A program made the translations under genes and the position numbers. A model generated the notes under the pieces. The model was not told the DNA's origin and made no database searches. It was given only the letters and a program-made list of their open reading frames with translations. Shown here one piece after another: positions 22,394 to 61,172 of a stretch of DNA of 64,000 bases. The stretch is from a virus. Location of the stretch: positions 33,764 through 97,763 of the IMG/VR virus record IMGVR_UViG_3300014834_000367. One strand, written 5' to 3'. Numbering within the stretch: the first letter of the stretch is position 1; each line of letters opens with the position of its first letter.

Positions 22394-22750
22394 ATGCGTT
22401 GGAGTTTATTTCTAGATGATATTAGACATCCAAAAACGCGAAGCCCATATGGCGGATGGGTGGTTGCTAGAAGCTTCGATGAAGCAATTGTCGCTATAGT
22501 TACATTAGGCGCCCCGTCTTTCATATCATTCGATCATGACCTTGGCGAAGATGTTCCAACTGGAATGGATCTAGCAAAATGGTTGGTTGAAAATGATATG
22601 GATAGGACAATCAATCTTCACAATGATTTTTCATTTGCAGTACATTCAGCAAATCCTGTTGGTGCGGCTAATATAGAAGGTCTGCTTAAACAGTACTTAC
22701 GAGTTAAACACGTAAACACCATCCATGGAACACCACACAAAAAGCCATGA
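22394..22750 (+). CDS. Cyclic-phosphate-processing receiver-domain protein
   Basis: LFLDDIRHP, ISFDHDLG, TG.DLAKWL, HSANPVG. Confidence 0.75.
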   Translation: MRWSLFLDDIRHPKTRSPYGGWVVARSFDEAIVAIVTLGAPSFISFDHDLGEDVPTGMDLAKWLVENDMDRTINLHNDFSFAVHSANPVGAANIEGLLKQYLRVKHVNTIHGTPHKKP

Positions 22751-23142
22751 CAATAATTTATACCGATACGCGAAAAAAATTAACAAAAAAGCAACAGGCG
22801 AAAGCCAAACAAGCTTTTGATAAATATCAACTTGAGTTTTGCAAAAAGGTTGGTTTAAATGTTGAACAGCTCAAAACAAAACAAAAATTTAAACCAATTG
22901 ACACGTACTCCTTATCATATCGTGGTCAACACGATAAAAAGGTATCTATAGATTCTGGAATTGGAATTGCTGCGAAAAGATCCATCATGGATCCAATGGT
23001 GTTACAGCGTGAGAAACCAGAAATTGTTGAAGCTATTAAACAGAAGGCAATGCGCACCGCGCCCCTCTTTAATAAAGGTGGATTGCAGTACATCTCTGAT
23101 GGTGAAGATTTAACCTCAATTGGAAAAAAGGTGGTAAGATAA
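22747..23142 (+). CDS. Basic hypothetical phage protein
   Basis: Translationally coupled ORF; C-terminal APLFNKGGLQY. Confidence 0.6.
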   Translation: MTIIYTDTRKKLTKKQQAKAKQAFDKYQLEFCKKVGLNVEQLKTKQKFKPIDTYSLSYRGQHDKKVSIDSGIGIAAKRSIMDPMVLQREKPEIVEAIKQKAMRTAPLFNKGGLQYISDGEDLTSIGKKVVR

Positions 23143-23984
23143 TGGCTAAATTTTTAATGGCGTGGAATCGCGAATTCCAGGTACAAAGTGAAATCAATCC
23201 TTGGATGGTCGGCAATAAACAACAAGTTAATCCGATTGTTGCAGCTACACAATGGGAACAACTTGTTTCAACGCTTTATGATTGCGGCGCACAGATTTCT
23301 TTTATGAATTTTGCAGATAAAAGTATTCCAGATATCGTGTTCACCGCAAATGCCGCTGTTGTCGTCAACAAAAAAGTTTTAATTGCAAACTTTAGACATC
23401 CCGAACGGAAGAGGGAACAAGGGTATAATTTTAATCATTTTTCAAATGGCATGTTGCTCGAATATAAAGCAATCACGGTGCCTCAAAAACACATTAGTTT
23501 TGAAGGCGCTGGCGACGCGCTATTAGACAATAAAGGTCGACTTTTCATGGGCTTTGGCTTTAGGTCAACACTTGGCGCAAAGCAAGAACTTGAACTCGCC
23601 TTCCCTGAAGTTTTAGTTAGGCCACTCCAGCTTGTTGATCCACGCTTCTACCATTTAGATACTTGCTTCTGCCCTCTTGAAGGAGCCAATGGAGAGACAG
23701 CAGTCATGTACTATCCTGGCGCTTTTGATGAATATGGCAATTATGTAATTCACAATTGCTTCGATAACATCATCGAGTTAACCGAAGATGAAGCAACGGT
23801 TTTCACTTGCAACGCAGTTCAGGTAAAACAGAATATTGTGTTAAGCGAATGTTCTCAACGGGTTGAAAATGAACTTGCCAAATTTGGCCTTAAAGTACGA
23901 CGTACGCCTTTAAGTGAATTCATGAAGTCTGGCGGTCAAGCGAAATGTTTAACGCTGAGAATTGATCAGATGTTCTCAGAGTAA
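23142..23984 (+). CDS. Amidinotransferase / DDAH-family (arginine dihydrolase-like) enzyme
   Basis: INPWM, PDIVFTANA, FEGAGD, FYHLDTCF, EFMKSGG.AKCLT. Confidence 0.88.
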   Translation: MAKFLMAWNREFQVQSEINPWMVGNKQQVNPIVAATQWEQLVSTLYDCGAQISFMNFADKSIPDIVFTANAAVVVNKKVLIANFRHPERKREQGYNFNHFSNGMLLEYKAITVPQKHISFEGAGDALLDNKGRLFMGFGFRSTLGAKQELELAFPEVLVRPLQLVDPRFYHLDTCFCPLEGANGETAVMYYPGAFDEYGNYVIHNCFDNIIELTEDEATVFTCNAVQVKQNIVLSECSQRVENELAKFGLKVRRTPLSEFMKSGGQAKCLTLRIDQMFSE

Positions 23985-24120
23985 ATAGGAACGCAGCTCC
24001 ACTATGGTTTGAGGCCTGGTCATAGCCAGCGTAGCGAATATGGCGACACAAGTTAGGGAGCTTTTACTTTTCTCCATAAAAATGTTATAATCTTTTTATG
24101 GATCCTATTAGGAGATATTA

Positions 24121-24489
24121 ATGAAGATGAAAGGAATTTCAGAAGCACGTGCAGTTGAATATTCATTCACTGTTAAAGAGTGGGATGGCAATGAACCAGA
24201 TGACGACACATATCTCGAACCATTTGATGTTGAAGTCACATATGAGGTAGAAGACCTAACCACAGCTCATCCATATGGCGAAGGTTCTGCTGTTGAAAGA
24301 ATTTATGATCTTGGCGTAATTAGTATGGAAACGGTAGACCCAGTGAGTTTGTTTGATGCTGACACTGAAGAAGTCATTGAAGTTTTCCCGGCAGGCACAG
24401 ATGTTCGTAAAATTCCTGGCTGGACGGATGACCATGAGGAATGGTTCTATGACGCCGCTGTAGAACATTACGAAAAACATGGACGATAA
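24121..24489 (+). CDS. Highly acidic hypothetical protein
   Basis: Promoter-like sequence and GGAG RBS upstream; D/E-rich. Confidence 0.65.
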   Translation: MKMKGISEARAVEYSFTVKEWDGNEPDDDTYLEPFDVEVTYEVEDLTTAHPYGEGSAVERIYDLGVISMETVDPVSLFDADTEEVIEVFPAGTDVRKIPGWTDDHEEWFYDAAVEHYEKHGR

Positions 24490-24631
24490 TTTTTTCATTG
24501 AACATGATACATGTTTTGAAATTAAAAATTACACGCCTATTATAGAGAAAGACGATAAAGGAAATATCATAAGTATGATTTGTTGTCCTTACATACCTAA
24601 GATATTTCCTGATGATCATGAAGCAAAGTGA
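24479..24631 (+). CDS. Small hypothetical protein (50 aa) ending inside a tmRNA remnant
   Basis: MDDNFFIEHD...DHEAK*, read by hand; overlaps the upstream stop. Confidence 0.4.
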   Translation: MDDNFFIEHDTCFEIKNYTPIIEKDDKGNIISMICCPYIPKIFPDDHEAK

Positions 24632-24673
24632 AAAGTGTTCTGGACGTGGGTTCAACTCCGCCCGGCTTCACCA
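24612..24673 (+). pseudogene. Degenerate copy of the tmRNA acceptor piece
   Basis: atgaagcaaagtgaaaagtgttctggacgtgggttcaactccgcccggcttcacca closely matches 25247-25302. Confidence 0.8.
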
Positions 24674-24682
24674 TAAGGAAGT

Positions 24683-24889
24683 GTGATGACTATAGACGAT
24701 CTGAAATATATTTTTAAGGCACAGCTTGATTCAGATATTCCTGATGTTTTATTGTGGTTTATGTTGACCGACGGTGAGCATAATCTAATAGAACGACATT
24801 CATCTGATGACTTAGAAGGTCTATTGCCCATGTTGAGTAGTTTCCAATATGTAGGCAAAGCGGCTGATGTTCCAAGATTCGTCAAGTAA
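24683..24889 (+). CDS. Small protein inside tmRNA-remnant intervening segment 1
   Basis: AAGGA RBS directly after the CCA; 68 aa. Confidence 0.6.
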   Translation: MMTIDDLKYIFKAQLDSDIPDVLLWFMLTDGEHNLIERHSSDDLEGLLPMLSSFQYVGKAADVPRFVK

Positions 24890-24903
24890 GTTTTTCTTAT
24901 GAT

Positions 24904-24940
24904 GGGTCAGTCATGGTTTCGACTCCCGCCATCTCCACCA
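24904..24940 (+). pseudogene. Fused tmRNA 5' end and 3' end remnant
   Basis: GGGTCAGTCATGGTTTCGAC joined through TTCGAC to TCCCGCCATCTCCACCA. Confidence 0.7.
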
Positions 24941-24952
24941 TAAGGAAGTATA

Positions 24953-25132
24953 ATGAATTGTCCAAAATGCGGAACTGAAATGAAGTTGGGTAGGGCTATA
25001 GATCCAATTGAGGAATCAAATTGTCATTATTTTGCTCCTCAACCTTTGATTAACAGTGAAACGTTACGACTCATTGATGTTCTAAAATGCCCTAAATGTG
25101 GGCATTCAGATGACGAATTAAATTCTTTATGA
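24953..25132 (+). CDS. Zinc-ribbon protein (59 aa) inside tmRNA-remnant intervening segment 2
   Basis: MNCPKCG...CPKCGH; AAGGA RBS directly after the CCA. Confidence 0.7.
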   Translation: MNCPKCGTEMKLGRAIDPIEESNCHYFAPQPLINSETLRLIDVLKCPKCGHSDDELNSL

Positions 25133-25238
25133 TGCGCCTGTCATGGTTTCGACATGACAAAGTGCAATAGCGCGCCATAACCCTCGATAAGCTGGGAAAC
25201 GAAGCTTCAGATGCATTTTATTTTTAATAAATAAGTTT

Positions 25239-25563
25239 ATGGTCGTATGAAGCAAAGAGAAAAGTGTTGCGGACGGCGGTTCGATTCCGCCCGGGTCCAC
25301 CATAAAACACACTAACAAAATGGGTTCAATTCCCTGCTATTTAGTGTGGGTCACGGAAGCTAGTGTGTTTTATAATGGGCCTGACCAGGTTTCGACGGAG
25401 CAAAGAGTATCTGAGTGGACGATTCGGCAATGCGAAAGCCGTTAGGGTTGGGGTCACCCGGCCGAAGAAGCAAAAACCGTAGAAGCAAACGACTCTACAT
25501 TCGCTCTCGCCGCGTAAGTGGCAAGCTGAGGCTTACTGAAAGCCAAGAAACAGAAAAATCAGT
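25239..25563 (+). ncRNA. ssrA: Circularly permuted (two-piece) tmRNA
   Basis: Acceptor piece ends GGTTCGATTCCGCCCGGGTCCACCA (25302). IVS 25303-25376 is closed by a 13-bp inverted repeat. Coding piece starts GGGCCTG (25377), giving a G3:U70 pair. Tag ANDSTFALAA* at 25485-25517. Confidence 0.92.
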
Positions 25564-25590
25564 ACGGGACCGCAAGCGGTCCCGTTTTAT
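25564..25590 (+). terminator. Intrinsic terminator after tmRNA
   Basis: acgggaccgcaagcggtcccgt followed by a T run. Confidence 0.85.
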
Positions 25591-25604
25591 TTTAGCAGAC
25601 ATGA

Positions 25605-25633
25605 TTTACAACAAGCAAAAAGTAGTGTATAAT
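25605..25633 (+). promoter_or_regulatory. Early promoter
   Basis: TTTACA-N17-TATAAT. Confidence 0.65.
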
Positions 25634-26624: not shown

Positions 26625-27386
26625 ATGGAAAAATTTGGAATTATTCAGAGCCGCGGCCTTGGAGATATTGTTATTGCTCTGCCTATTGCCCATCACTTTC
26701 ACACTGTAGAAAATAAAGAGGTGTATTGGCCAATCTGTGAAGAATTTATTCCAGCAGTTGAGAAACATGTTCCTTGGGTAAATTGGTTATCAGTAAAAAC
26801 TGATAAGACCGGACTCTTCTTTTCCAAAGAGCCACTTAGATTACTTCAGGCCGCTGGCGTATCTGACATGATTTGCCTGTATCAAGCATTAACTAATATG
26901 CCTGAGTTGAAACAAGAGCCATCATTCCAATACATGAAATTTGATCAGTCTAAATATAATAGAGCCGGGATTCCTTTTCTCAATAAGTGGAAGCTTGCAA
27001 AATGCATCTCACGAGATCTAGAGGTCGAACAAGCCGTTTGCAAGAAATTAACTAACGGCAAGCCATATGTGGTAGCCCATTTGGAGGGTTCTGATTATTC
27101 TGCAAATATTGATTTAAGTCATGTCATTCAACAGGGCTATGAATTAATTAAATTAACAAAAGACACAGTATCATCTCCATTTGATGCCATCTCGCTGCTT
27201 GAAGGGGCAGAGGCATTATTTTTACTCGACAGTGTTTATGCAAATATGGTTGATCAGCTTCAGATTGATGTTGATAAGTATTTTATTCCTAGATCTCATA
27301 TCCAATTAACTCCAGTTCTTGGATCAGATTGGACAATTTTAGAGCCAGAACAAATTATCAAACAACGCACAACTATTTTTGGGTAA
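26625..27386 (+). CDS. GT9-like glycosyltransferase
   Basis: RGLGDIVIALP and a C-terminal DS motif. Confidence 0.65.
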   Translation: MEKFGIIQSRGLGDIVIALPIAHHFHTVENKEVYWPICEEFIPAVEKHVPWVNWLSVKTDKTGLFFSKEPLRLLQAAGVSDMICLYQALTNMPELKQEPSFQYMKFDQSKYNRAGIPFLNKWKLAKCISRDLEVEQAVCKKLTNGKPYVVAHLEGSDYSANIDLSHVIQQGYELIKLTKDTVSSPFDAISLLEGAEALFLLDSVYANMVDQLQIDVDKYFIPRSHIQLTPVLGSDWTILEPEQIIKQRTTIFG

Positions 27387-27390
27387 AACT

Positions 27391-28587
27391 ATGAAAATCG
27401 CAATCATCGGCGCGGGGTTAGCCGGCATGTTGCCAGCGTATTATTTAGCAAAGTCTGGGCATAAAGTTACGATCTTTGATCAGGAACGTTATGCGGCGAT
27501 GCGAACAAGCTTCGCAAATGGCGGGCAAATGTCCGTTAGCAACAGCGAAGTTTGGACAACTTGGGCAAATGTCGGAAAGGGCCTAAAATGGCTGGCACAA
27601 AAAGATGCGCCTCTTCTGATTAGGCCGTCTCTCGATCCAGAAAAATTTGCTTGGCTTTTTAAATTCATATTATCTACTGCTCGAGGCGACGCCGAAAAAC
27701 GCACGCTTGAGACCATTAAATTAGGAATTGAAAGTCGTGAATTATACAGCTGTATTGCCTCCGAAGAAGAAATTTCTTTTTCACAGAGCAACTGCGGTAT
27801 CATGCACGTTTATTGGGATAAAGCACAACTTGAAGCAAGTGAAAAAATACAACCACTTTTTGAGAATGCTGGCTGCGGCTGGGAAATTATTAATAGGGCC
27901 AGAATAGCTAGAGTAGCAGAAATAGAACCAACACTGGCCAACCGTTCAGTTTTCATGGCAGGTGCAGCCTGGACGCCAGATGACAGCGTTGGTGACGCGC
28001 ATCAATTCTGTGTACAACTTTTAAGTGTTTTAAAGAAAAAGTATAATGTTTATTTTTCTCATGAATTGTTATCACCCAAAAAATTAAAAGAACTGATTTC
28101 AGAATTTGACACTGTAGTTGTAGCAGCAGGAGTGGGATCTCCAAAATTAGCCAAATCTATTGGTGATAATTTGCCAATTTATCCAGTAAAGGGTTATAGC
28201 ATAACAGTGTCTATGCCTGAAGATAAAGCAAATACATTATTTCCAAAAGTAAGTATTCTTGATGATAAGGCAAAAATCGTGACCAGCACGCTTGGCAACC
28301 GCCTTCGCGTCGCCGGAACAGCAGAATTAGCTGGTCATAATTATGACATTACCCGCAGTAGAATCGAGCCATTGCTTAAATGGGTTCATGCCACGCTGCC
28401 AAAAGTTGAAACAAGAGAATATTCGCAATGGGCATGTTTAAGGCCAATGACGCCAGACATGATGCCTATAGTTAAACAATCTAAGAAAAATCCAAAAGTA
28501 TTTTACCACACGGGCCATGGCCATTTAGGATTTACATTATCACCAGCTACTGCACAACACTTAGCAAAGATGATTGAACAAGTATAA
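27391..28587 (+). CDS. dadA: D-amino acid dehydrogenase
   Basis: IIGAGLAG, TSFANGGQ, IYPVKGYS, RVAGTAE, WACLRPMTPD, TGHGHLG. Confidence 0.9.
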   Translation: MKIAIIGAGLAGMLPAYYLAKSGHKVTIFDQERYAAMRTSFANGGQMSVSNSEVWTTWANVGKGLKWLAQKDAPLLIRPSLDPEKFAWLFKFILSTARGDAEKRTLETIKLGIESRELYSCIASEEEISFSQSNCGIMHVYWDKAQLEASEKIQPLFENAGCGWEIINRARIARVAEIEPTLANRSVFMAGAAWTPDDSVGDAHQFCVQLLSVLKKKYNVYFSHELLSPKKLKELISEFDTVVVAAGVGSPKLAKSIGDNLPIYPVKGYSITVSMPEDKANTLFPKVSILDDKAKIVTSTLGNRLRVAGTAELAGHNYDITRSRIEPLLKWVHATLPKVETREYSQWACLRPMTPDMMPIVKQSKKNPKVFYHTGHGHLGFTLSPATAQHLAKMIEQV

Positions 28588-61057: not shown

Positions 61058-61172
61058 AAAATCTAGATATCTGATATCTGATATCTGATAACTGAGTCCC
61101 ATTGGAAGGGAGCAGCGCTAAGTTGAAAATCTGTTGGTTCGATTCCAACCAGTTATCAGTTACCTAGGTTTT
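61058..61172 (+). ncRNA. tRNA-like RNA with an extended closing stem and no CCA (Y-RNA-like candidate)
   Basis: CTGATAACTG/CAGTTATCAG stem, TCCC-ATTGGAA-GGGA D-like arm, GTTGG-TTCGATT-CCAAC T arm; promoter-like sequence near 61014. Confidence 0.55.

Follow-up and report, generated by a model that had tools for sequence, protein, structure and literature searches.

A probable relic stack of tmRNA spacer genes in an uncultured phage and protein genes in the tmRNA spacers of its relatives

A locus is described here in which three small protein genes stand in a row directly upstream of an intact permuted transfer-messenger RNA (tmRNA) gene, interleaved with degenerate copies of tmRNA ends. It occupies positions 24479–25590, on the + strand, of a window of 64,000 nucleotides (nt), i.e. 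the whole stretch of DNA that was analysed, which corresponds to bases 33764–97763 of the 97,763-base IMG/VR virus record IMGVR_UViG_3300014834_000367; the CheckV completeness of this record is 29%, which implies a genome of roughly 330 kb and hence a jumbo phage. The locus is best read as the stacked relics of former spacer genes, brought together by recombination between tmRNA ends, in which the last tmRNA frame alone would still be working, and to this reading we assign a probability of roughly 0.78. Few small RNAs are better studied than tmRNA, and the spacer that separates the two pieces of its permuted form (the intervening segment, IVS) is treated as disposable. In many uncultured aquatic phages this spacer is a standard socket for small protein genes, with the ribosome-binding site in one stem arm and often the stop codon in the other. 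What this window adds is the stacked relic row with its three probable former slot genes, which suggests a life history for the socket: slots are stacked at tmRNA ends, and the genes outlive the RNA gene that housed them and end as ordinary small genes.

An intact permuted tmRNA and the degenerate frames upstream of it

One copy of the permuted gene, with an acceptor piece ending in CCA, a spacer closed by a stem and a coding piece beginning at G1, is referred to as a frame. The features of the locus are as follows, including the open reading frames (ORFs) and the Shine–Dalgarno (SD) sequences.

24479–24631, +, ORF0, 50 amino acids (aa), probable former spacer gene, from homology to the cargo of the related loci L475/L476
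24617–24673, +, frame A, degenerate acceptor (3') piece with its CCA end at 24673
24674–24903, +, spacer A, 230 nt, with a 5' arm carrying the SD (24674–24682), ORF1 and a 3' arm (24891–24903)
24686–24889, +, ORF1, 67 aa, from ATG 24686
24904–24940, +, mini junction, frame A 5' start (24904–24923) fused to the frame B T-loop-to-CCA end (24924–24940)
24941–25133, +, spacer B, 193 nt, with an SD arm (24941–24949), ORF2 and a 3' arm (25121–25133)
24953–25132, +, ORF2, 59-aa double-CPKC zinc ribbon, from an ORF call and weak Pfam matches
25134–25225, +, frame B coding-piece relic, with a 5' start (25134–25153) and a remnant of the P2 strand to about 25165
25164–25180 and 25197–25225, +, tag-end remnant and decayed terminator of frame B, from alignment to L301 and L399
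25241–25590, +, frame C, intact permuted tmRNA, from ARAGORN and Rfam
25241–25302, +, frame C acceptor piece with its CCA end at 25302
25303–25376, +, frame C spacer (IVS), ORF-free, 74 nt, with a 13-bp closing stem
from 25377 (G1), +, frame C coding piece, the intact tmRNA 5' end
25479/25485–25517, +, frame C tag frame, ending ..ALAA-stop
25564–25585 plus a T tract, +, strong terminator of frame C, from a terminator scan

Frame C matches the whole of the Rfam model RF04321 (positions 1–213) with 107.7 bits, well above the gathering score of 47 bits, and matches RF01850 with 99.4 bits, while ARAGORN makes a permuted tmRNA* call at 25210–25608 with a tag ending in ..ANDSTFALAA. All seven acceptor-stem pairs (including a G–U pair at position 3) and all five T-stem pairs are formed, CCA is encoded, and a tag frame with an ..ALAA-stop end and a terminator are present. 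The preliminary description of this DNA, made from the letters alone, had correctly recognized an intact permuted gene with the order acceptor-CCA, stem-closed IVS and 5' end. The tmRNA models gave the only Rfam gathering hits across the window; no Intron_gpI match was obtained in the window at the gathering score, nor in 24540–25240 at E-values of up to 10. A search of the phage GenBank collection returned one weak 75-nt match only. A T-arm-like hairpin was also noted at 25321–25333, inside the ORF-free spacer of frame C.

Upstream of frame C the ends of the tmRNA gene are repeated. A 59-nt copy of the acceptor piece (24618–24676) is 85% identical to the intact one (BLAST E-value 7e-8 against the whole contig), the 5' start is present in three copies (24884–24923, 25114–25153 and 25357–25396) and the T-loop-to-CCA end is likewise present three times at the locus; the 5' starts of cassettes A and B match at 24 of 27 positions (E-value 0.002). 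No further such copies were found elsewhere in the 97.8-kb record, the repeats being confined to the locus. Both cassettes have the layout of a slot, namely CCA, a purine-rich SD arm and a complementary 3' arm that ends 3 nt before G1, and the arms pair over 10 bp in spacer A and 9 bp in spacer B, the SD included in each case. The 9-nt SD arm is shared with the related loci L399, L358, L259 and L301; after CCA it occurs twice in the 64 kb, both times at this locus. The possibility that the SD arm is simply the usual ribosome-binding context of this phage was rejected, as the 9-mer is found nowhere else in the 64 kb. The frame A acceptor piece is about 90% identical to the L399-type piece, L221 has a 3' end identical to the frame B T-loop-to-CCA end, and over 56 nt the 5' start of frame B, together with part of P2, shares 87% identity with the 5' piece of L399. 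A 5' start and a 3' end meet at the motif TTCGAC (24918–24923). The degenerate ends bracketing two ORFs, the fusion at a shared TTCGAC, the SD within the stem arm and the four boundary coordinates (24673, 24904, 24940 and 25134) had all been given in the preliminary description and are confirmed; it had missed the coding-piece and terminator relics of frame B.

Frames A and B are broken as tmRNA genes. At relaxed thresholds Rfam reads in frame A no more than the truncated 3' part of a tmRNA, at 27.6 bits and with two T-stem pairs that are non-standard; five of seven acceptor pairs and three of five T-stem pairs are left. In frame B four to five of the seven acceptor pairs remain and the T arm is without its 5' half; the junction at 24904–24940 is read as a tmRNA of standard order from which everything internal has been deleted, at a non-significant 7.7 bits, and it folds weakly (−7.7 kcal/mol), with no convincing minihelix. 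An alternative view of this junction, as an internally deleted acceptor piece, was rejected, since on its left side 17 of 20 positions agree with the other 5' start. About 150 nt of the frame B coding piece are missing relative to relatives, and tag and terminator are absent from frame A and reduced to remnants in frame B. Neither frame, therefore, belongs to RF04321, and the suggestion that the cassettes are working tmRNA frames did not survive. Because the T and acceptor stems are broken and the Rfam scores are low, tRNA-type processing of these frames at 24673, 24904, 24940 and 25134 is doubtful. The + strand showed no terminator-like site from about 23900 to 25564, so a transcript through the ORFs probably reads into the intact tmRNA, and translation of the three ORFs most likely proceeds from that transcript in the manner of ordinary small genes.

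The ORFs themselves are conserved, and proteins exactly matching ORF0, ORF1 and ORF2 are encoded on 30, 38 and 37 contigs, respectively. ORF0 retains just a decayed 3' arm (24605–24616), which encodes its last codons and is joined directly to the start of the frame A acceptor piece. Its product is 48% identical over 48 aa (E-value 3e-13) to the cargo of the intact tmRNAs L475 and L476, the former a full-length RF04321 match of 99.3 bits, with a proportion of synonymous differences (pS) of 0.76 and of nonsynonymous differences (pN) of 0.30. Because ORF0 matches this cargo and takes its tail from a decayed 3' arm, the window is taken, on these alignments, to hold three former slot genes in a row and not, as had been supposed, only two captured genes. 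The start of ORF1 is most likely ATG 24686; the gene proposed earlier is thus real, while its length of 68 aa gives way to 67 aa. The ORF1 family comprises 11 database proteins, five of them at 79–87% identity, and 80 lake-metagenome loci with 27 invariant columns, and it is cargo in the IVS of four intact tmRNAs (L399, L479, L488 and L511). The AF2 model of ORF1 has a pLDDT of 92 and gave no significant match in the PDB (best Foldseek E-value 0.16), and PHROGs and Pfam returned nothing for ORF1 or ORF0. ORF2 has nine relatives at 51–70% identity, with differing C-terminal tails, and sub-threshold zinc-ribbon matches only in Pfam; its last two codons and stop are arm sequence, the stop being the arm TGA, 1 nt before the 5' start. 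Across cargo pairs, including L399 versus L131, pS lies well above pN. These comparisons show that the window ORFs have been conserved while their frames decayed, and that the cargo is under purifying selection.

Outside tmRNA genes, ORF1-family genes (L087–L166) usually lie in a recurring module of small genes, in which the conserved ..HFGVE tail of the upstream gene overlaps the start, the downstream gene begins MNERI.. and the other neighbours vary. On one lake phage contig (L088, 687–1150) a GOLLD RNA (RF02032, 194.5 bits) adjoins an array of about a dozen tRNA genes and an ORF1-family gene.

Protein genes in the tmRNA spacers of related phages

Related loci were sought in IMG/VR by gap-pattern scans, from which only matches with a perfect 7-bp acceptor stem were kept; this filter was needed because unfiltered matches were mostly tRNA or tmRNA ends with a chance TTCGAC. 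The filtered scans gave 17 contigs with spacers of 138–237 nt, all 17 of which ARAGORN called as permuted tmRNA with canonical tags, and two loci from a wider filter (L383 and L314) brought the set to 19 with full-length RF04321 matches (81–147 bits). In 18 of these the spacer holds one ORF in a cassette-like layout, i.e. CCA, the SD arm, the ORF with its start codon no more than about ten bases on, the 3' arm and G1; the spacer of the 19th (L392) is compound and non-coding. Seven further loci, including the thioredoxin carriers L422 and L486, are full-length by Rfam, and canonical tags were also found by ARAGORN for L475, L479 and L488; L434 gave no Rfam match. In total, 26 IMG/VR loci combine a full-length RF04321 match with a long IVS, and 25 of them hold a single ORF of 30–133 aa. 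A slot inside an intact tmRNA frame is thus found in 25 relatives, in contrast to frames A and B of the window.

A broader view was obtained by scanning IMG/VR for an exact 16-mer consisting of the acceptor-stem end, CCA and the SD arm, and the figures that follow apply among the matches listed, 119 in number. At least about 98 are tmRNA 3' ends followed by the SD arm. In 56 of these the T arm is canonical and a frame can be detected, in about 28 the T arm is reduced in the manner of L131, and 14 are truncated or ambiguous; about 20 matches are chance occurrences in coding DNA. A scorable cargo ORF was present at 80 ends, giving 61 distinct sequences, and together with ORF1 and ORF2 of the window the cargo falls into at least 30 families, one of which is thioredoxin (PF00085, 75 bits). 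Of the 82 cargo proteins (ORF1 and ORF2 included), 39 have the C-terminus ..SL, since the 3'-arm TGA that lies 1 nt ahead of G1 serves as their stop. Five loci have an SD arm and an ORF with no 5' start detected. Covariation between loci is seen in the stem that closes the IVS at its base, in spacers with an ORF and in those without.

Distant relatives, which are syntenic through a neighbouring gene for a DDAH-like protein, carry a permuted tmRNA at the same place with ORF-free spacers of 20–64 nt. The preliminary description had proposed the IVS as a gene-capture slot and had suggested asking whether its content varies between empty and ORF-bearing while the flanks are kept, which is the pattern found (an ORF in 25 of the 26 long spacers, none in the short spacers of the distant relatives). 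Taken together, these loci show that related phages use the spacer as a slot, the flanks of which are conserved while the protein genes inside it vary.

Two variants of the arrangement were noted. In L178, L255, L475, L407 and L505 the spacer ORF has no stop within the spacer and reads into the first 15–50 nt of the coding piece, where the predicted RNase P cut would fall before the cargo stop. At about 28 loci, and at L131 (5215–5449), the T arm is reduced and non-canonical, with a GC stem and a 7-nt loop without the TTCGA motif; this subgroup still scores 100 bits on RF04321 and has the same SD-arm slots.

Exchange, stacking and decay of the slots

Evidence for exchange comes from L399, L259 and L292, whose 64-nt acceptor pieces are 100% identical while their cargo is unrelated (the piece of L264 is 98% identical), and the L399 flanks match cassette A almost base for base. 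In L392 an intact tmRNA (140 bits) has a spacer made of two stem-closed units, between which lies a mini fusion of a 5' acceptor strand and a CCA end, so that L392 is a second, non-coding stacked case. The first unit of this spacer (1177–1413) carries a tRNA-like insert, called tRNA-Leu(aag) by ARAGORN at a relaxed threshold, and some spacers may hold tRNA relics instead of ORFs. L131, which is syntenic with L399, has an ORF1 homologue 78% identical to that of L399, and this homologue lies immediately upstream of a short-IVS tmRNA, still flanked by what is left of the two arms; the arrangement resembles a more advanced state of the decay seen in the window. The identical acceptor pieces, the TTCGAC junction and the L392 stack all fit the earlier proposal of recombination at conserved tmRNA ends.

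In the reading that we favour, slot genes of related phages have their SD in the 5' arm and often use as stop the 3'-arm TGA, 1 nt before the RNase P site. Where the frame is intact, the cargo is part of the pre-tmRNA and would be freed by RNase P and 3'-end maturation. Slots with different cargo could then be stacked by unequal recombination at the short 5'-start and T-loop motifs (as at the junction at 24918–24923), and tandem tmRNA frames would also have arisen by recombination anchored on the tmRNA. Once a downstream tmRNA supplied the function, the upstream frames would erode while selection kept the protein genes, and the three ORFs of the window would be translated as ordinary small genes from a transcript running into the intact tmRNA. 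Several points weigh against this reading. The order of events in the stack is one that we infer. The remnants in 25154–25225 are borderline significant only, the tag-end and terminator remnants being matched by 1/200 and 0/200 shuffles, respectively. The ORF2 family was not found in an intact IVS elsewhere, and no other stacked ORF array came out of a scan of IMG/VR with exact motifs. In that scan, the sole match with two CCA-SD motifs 212–273 nt apart was a coding repeat in a jumbo phage (L403) and was rejected as a second ORF stack.

A more far-reaching reading regards the locus type as a recombinase-free platform for gene capture and expression, in which any small gene lying between the arms would be transcribed from the tmRNA promoter and released by RNase P and 3'-end maturation as a mini-mRNA with the SD at its 5' end and the stop codon 1 nt from its 3' end, with translation coupled to maturation and perhaps to trans-translation; crossovers at TTCGAC would stack or exchange slots and relic ends might serve as punctuation. 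We regard this as tentative and, as a whole, unlikely. A rival view applies the mechanism of the preliminary description to the window itself: relic tmRNA ends would still be working punctuation at which RNase P and 3' enzymes release ORF1 and ORF2 mini-mRNAs, or at which arm pairing gates translation. This is less probable again: the SD is still hidden by arm pairing over 10 and 9 bp, intact relatives share the layout and there is no terminator between the units, but the acceptor stems keep only four to five of seven pairs and the T stem three of five, frame B is without the 5' half of the T arm, the scores of 27.6 and 7.7 bits stand against a cut-off of 47, and the weakly folded junction (−7.7 kcal/mol) forms no minihelix. 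The polarity might also be reversed, with ORF0–ORF2 being ordinary genes that are now bracketed by partial tmRNA duplications, i.e. slots being born. The ORF1 homologue outside the tmRNA in L131 would suit such a course, and direction is not directly readable without an outgroup; however, cassette A matches the complete L399 arrangement in arms and flanks, the mismatched stems, the internal deletion and the broken terminator are marks of decay, and the tails of ORF0 and ORF2 are encoded by arm sequence as in working slots, which leaves reversed polarity very improbable.

Explanations that involve integration or assembly fare worse still. The tmRNA genes are classic integration sites, and one junction lies within the T-loop motif, as would be expected of attachment-site (att) scars left by elements that were integrated at the tmRNA T loop by an integrase supplied in trans. 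Such scars had been named at the outset as a competing origin of the duplicates, but this origin fails on several grounds: no tyrosine integrase (PF00589) is encoded in the 97.8-kb contig, itself a fragment; the 5' starts are duplicated too, which is not a product of integration; the units are only 230–267 bp long; and the same arms occur inside single intact tmRNA genes. Only a very small residual chance is left to it. The least credible of all is a chimera of strain variants with different spacer cargo; the source is a metagenome assembly and many slot variants exist in nature, yet the repeats are short (20–60 nt) and 65–89% identical rather than exact, the copies differ by many substitutions plus deletions, and the exact ORF0, ORF1 and ORF2 proteins recur across the contigs counted above, which reduces the chimera to a nearly negligible chance.

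Relation to known systems and other features

The IVS of two-piece tmRNAs has been described as a short discarded segment, with phage copies known, for example, from the Methylophilales phage Melnitz (PMC9004378; PMC11915505), and a 2025 tmRNA database paper records a tRNA-Ala in one IVS as a unique feature. The known permuted tmRNAs (RF04321/RF01850) and the window have in common the order of acceptor piece-CCA, IVS and coding piece, the stem at the base of the IVS, the canonical tag and the carriage by aquatic myophage-like genomes; in contrast, protein genes occupy the IVS at no fewer than about 98 of the phage loci reported here, and the window has stacked and decayed frames. No description of protein genes in a tmRNA spacer was found in the full-text literature searched.

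Four other systems invite comparison. The 23S rRNA IVS of Coxiella burnetii with S23p is likewise stem-closed and excised from a stable-RNA precursor with an ORF inside (PMC4990558), and it reportedly has one conserved ORF, is called a selfish element and probably does not yield its protein (PMC4990558), whereas the phage spacers have at least 30 unrelated cargo families under purifying selection, with the SD forming part of the stem arm. Where a group I intron with a homing endonuclease gene occupies the T loop of a tmRNA (PMC11915505), a protein gene is likewise nested in the RNA gene and removed from the mature RNA; in contrast, the window has no intron core, its cargo is not an endonuclease and removal would proceed by tRNA-type processing. 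The PeSL cassettes of T4-type phages reportedly consist of small variable ORFs between short conserved repeats, to which a part in the recombinational shuffling of the ORFs is ascribed (PMC2839356, PMC4122927); the repeats here differ in being the ends of a stable-RNA gene rather than promoter–terminator motifs, and the unit lies inside an RNA gene. Tandem genomic islands built by integrases at tmRNA and tRNA genes resemble the locus in that repeated tmRNA-end copies mark the units, but here there is no integrase, the 5' starts are also repeated and each unit is one small gene long.

If the proposed course is right, the tmRNA spacer would offer phages a concrete route for gaining and shuffling small genes of unassigned function, and the precursor of a stable RNA might have a dual role as a messenger, with translation tied to RNA processing. 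Both tmRNA finders and annotators should expect gene-holding spacers of 100 to over 400 nt.

Further RNA elements were noted on other contigs. In L102 (3680–3880) a phage tRNA region contains a group I intron match of 61.9 bits, and in L465 a COG2908 RNA motif (159–203, 70.9 bits) lies about 1.9 kb upstream of a tmRNA whose spacer gene has 133 codons. In the window, the set of neighbouring genes at 22394–22750, 23142–23984 and 27379–28587 includes a cREC_REC domain protein (PF20274, 86 bits), the DDAH/amidinotransferase-like protein (PF19420) that is syntenic with the tmRNA in the distant relatives and a DAO-family FAD oxidoreductase (195 bits). Finally, ARAGORN calls a tRNA-Pro(tgg) at 61066–61158, which at 93 nt (anticodon at position 38) is unusually long for a tRNA-Pro.

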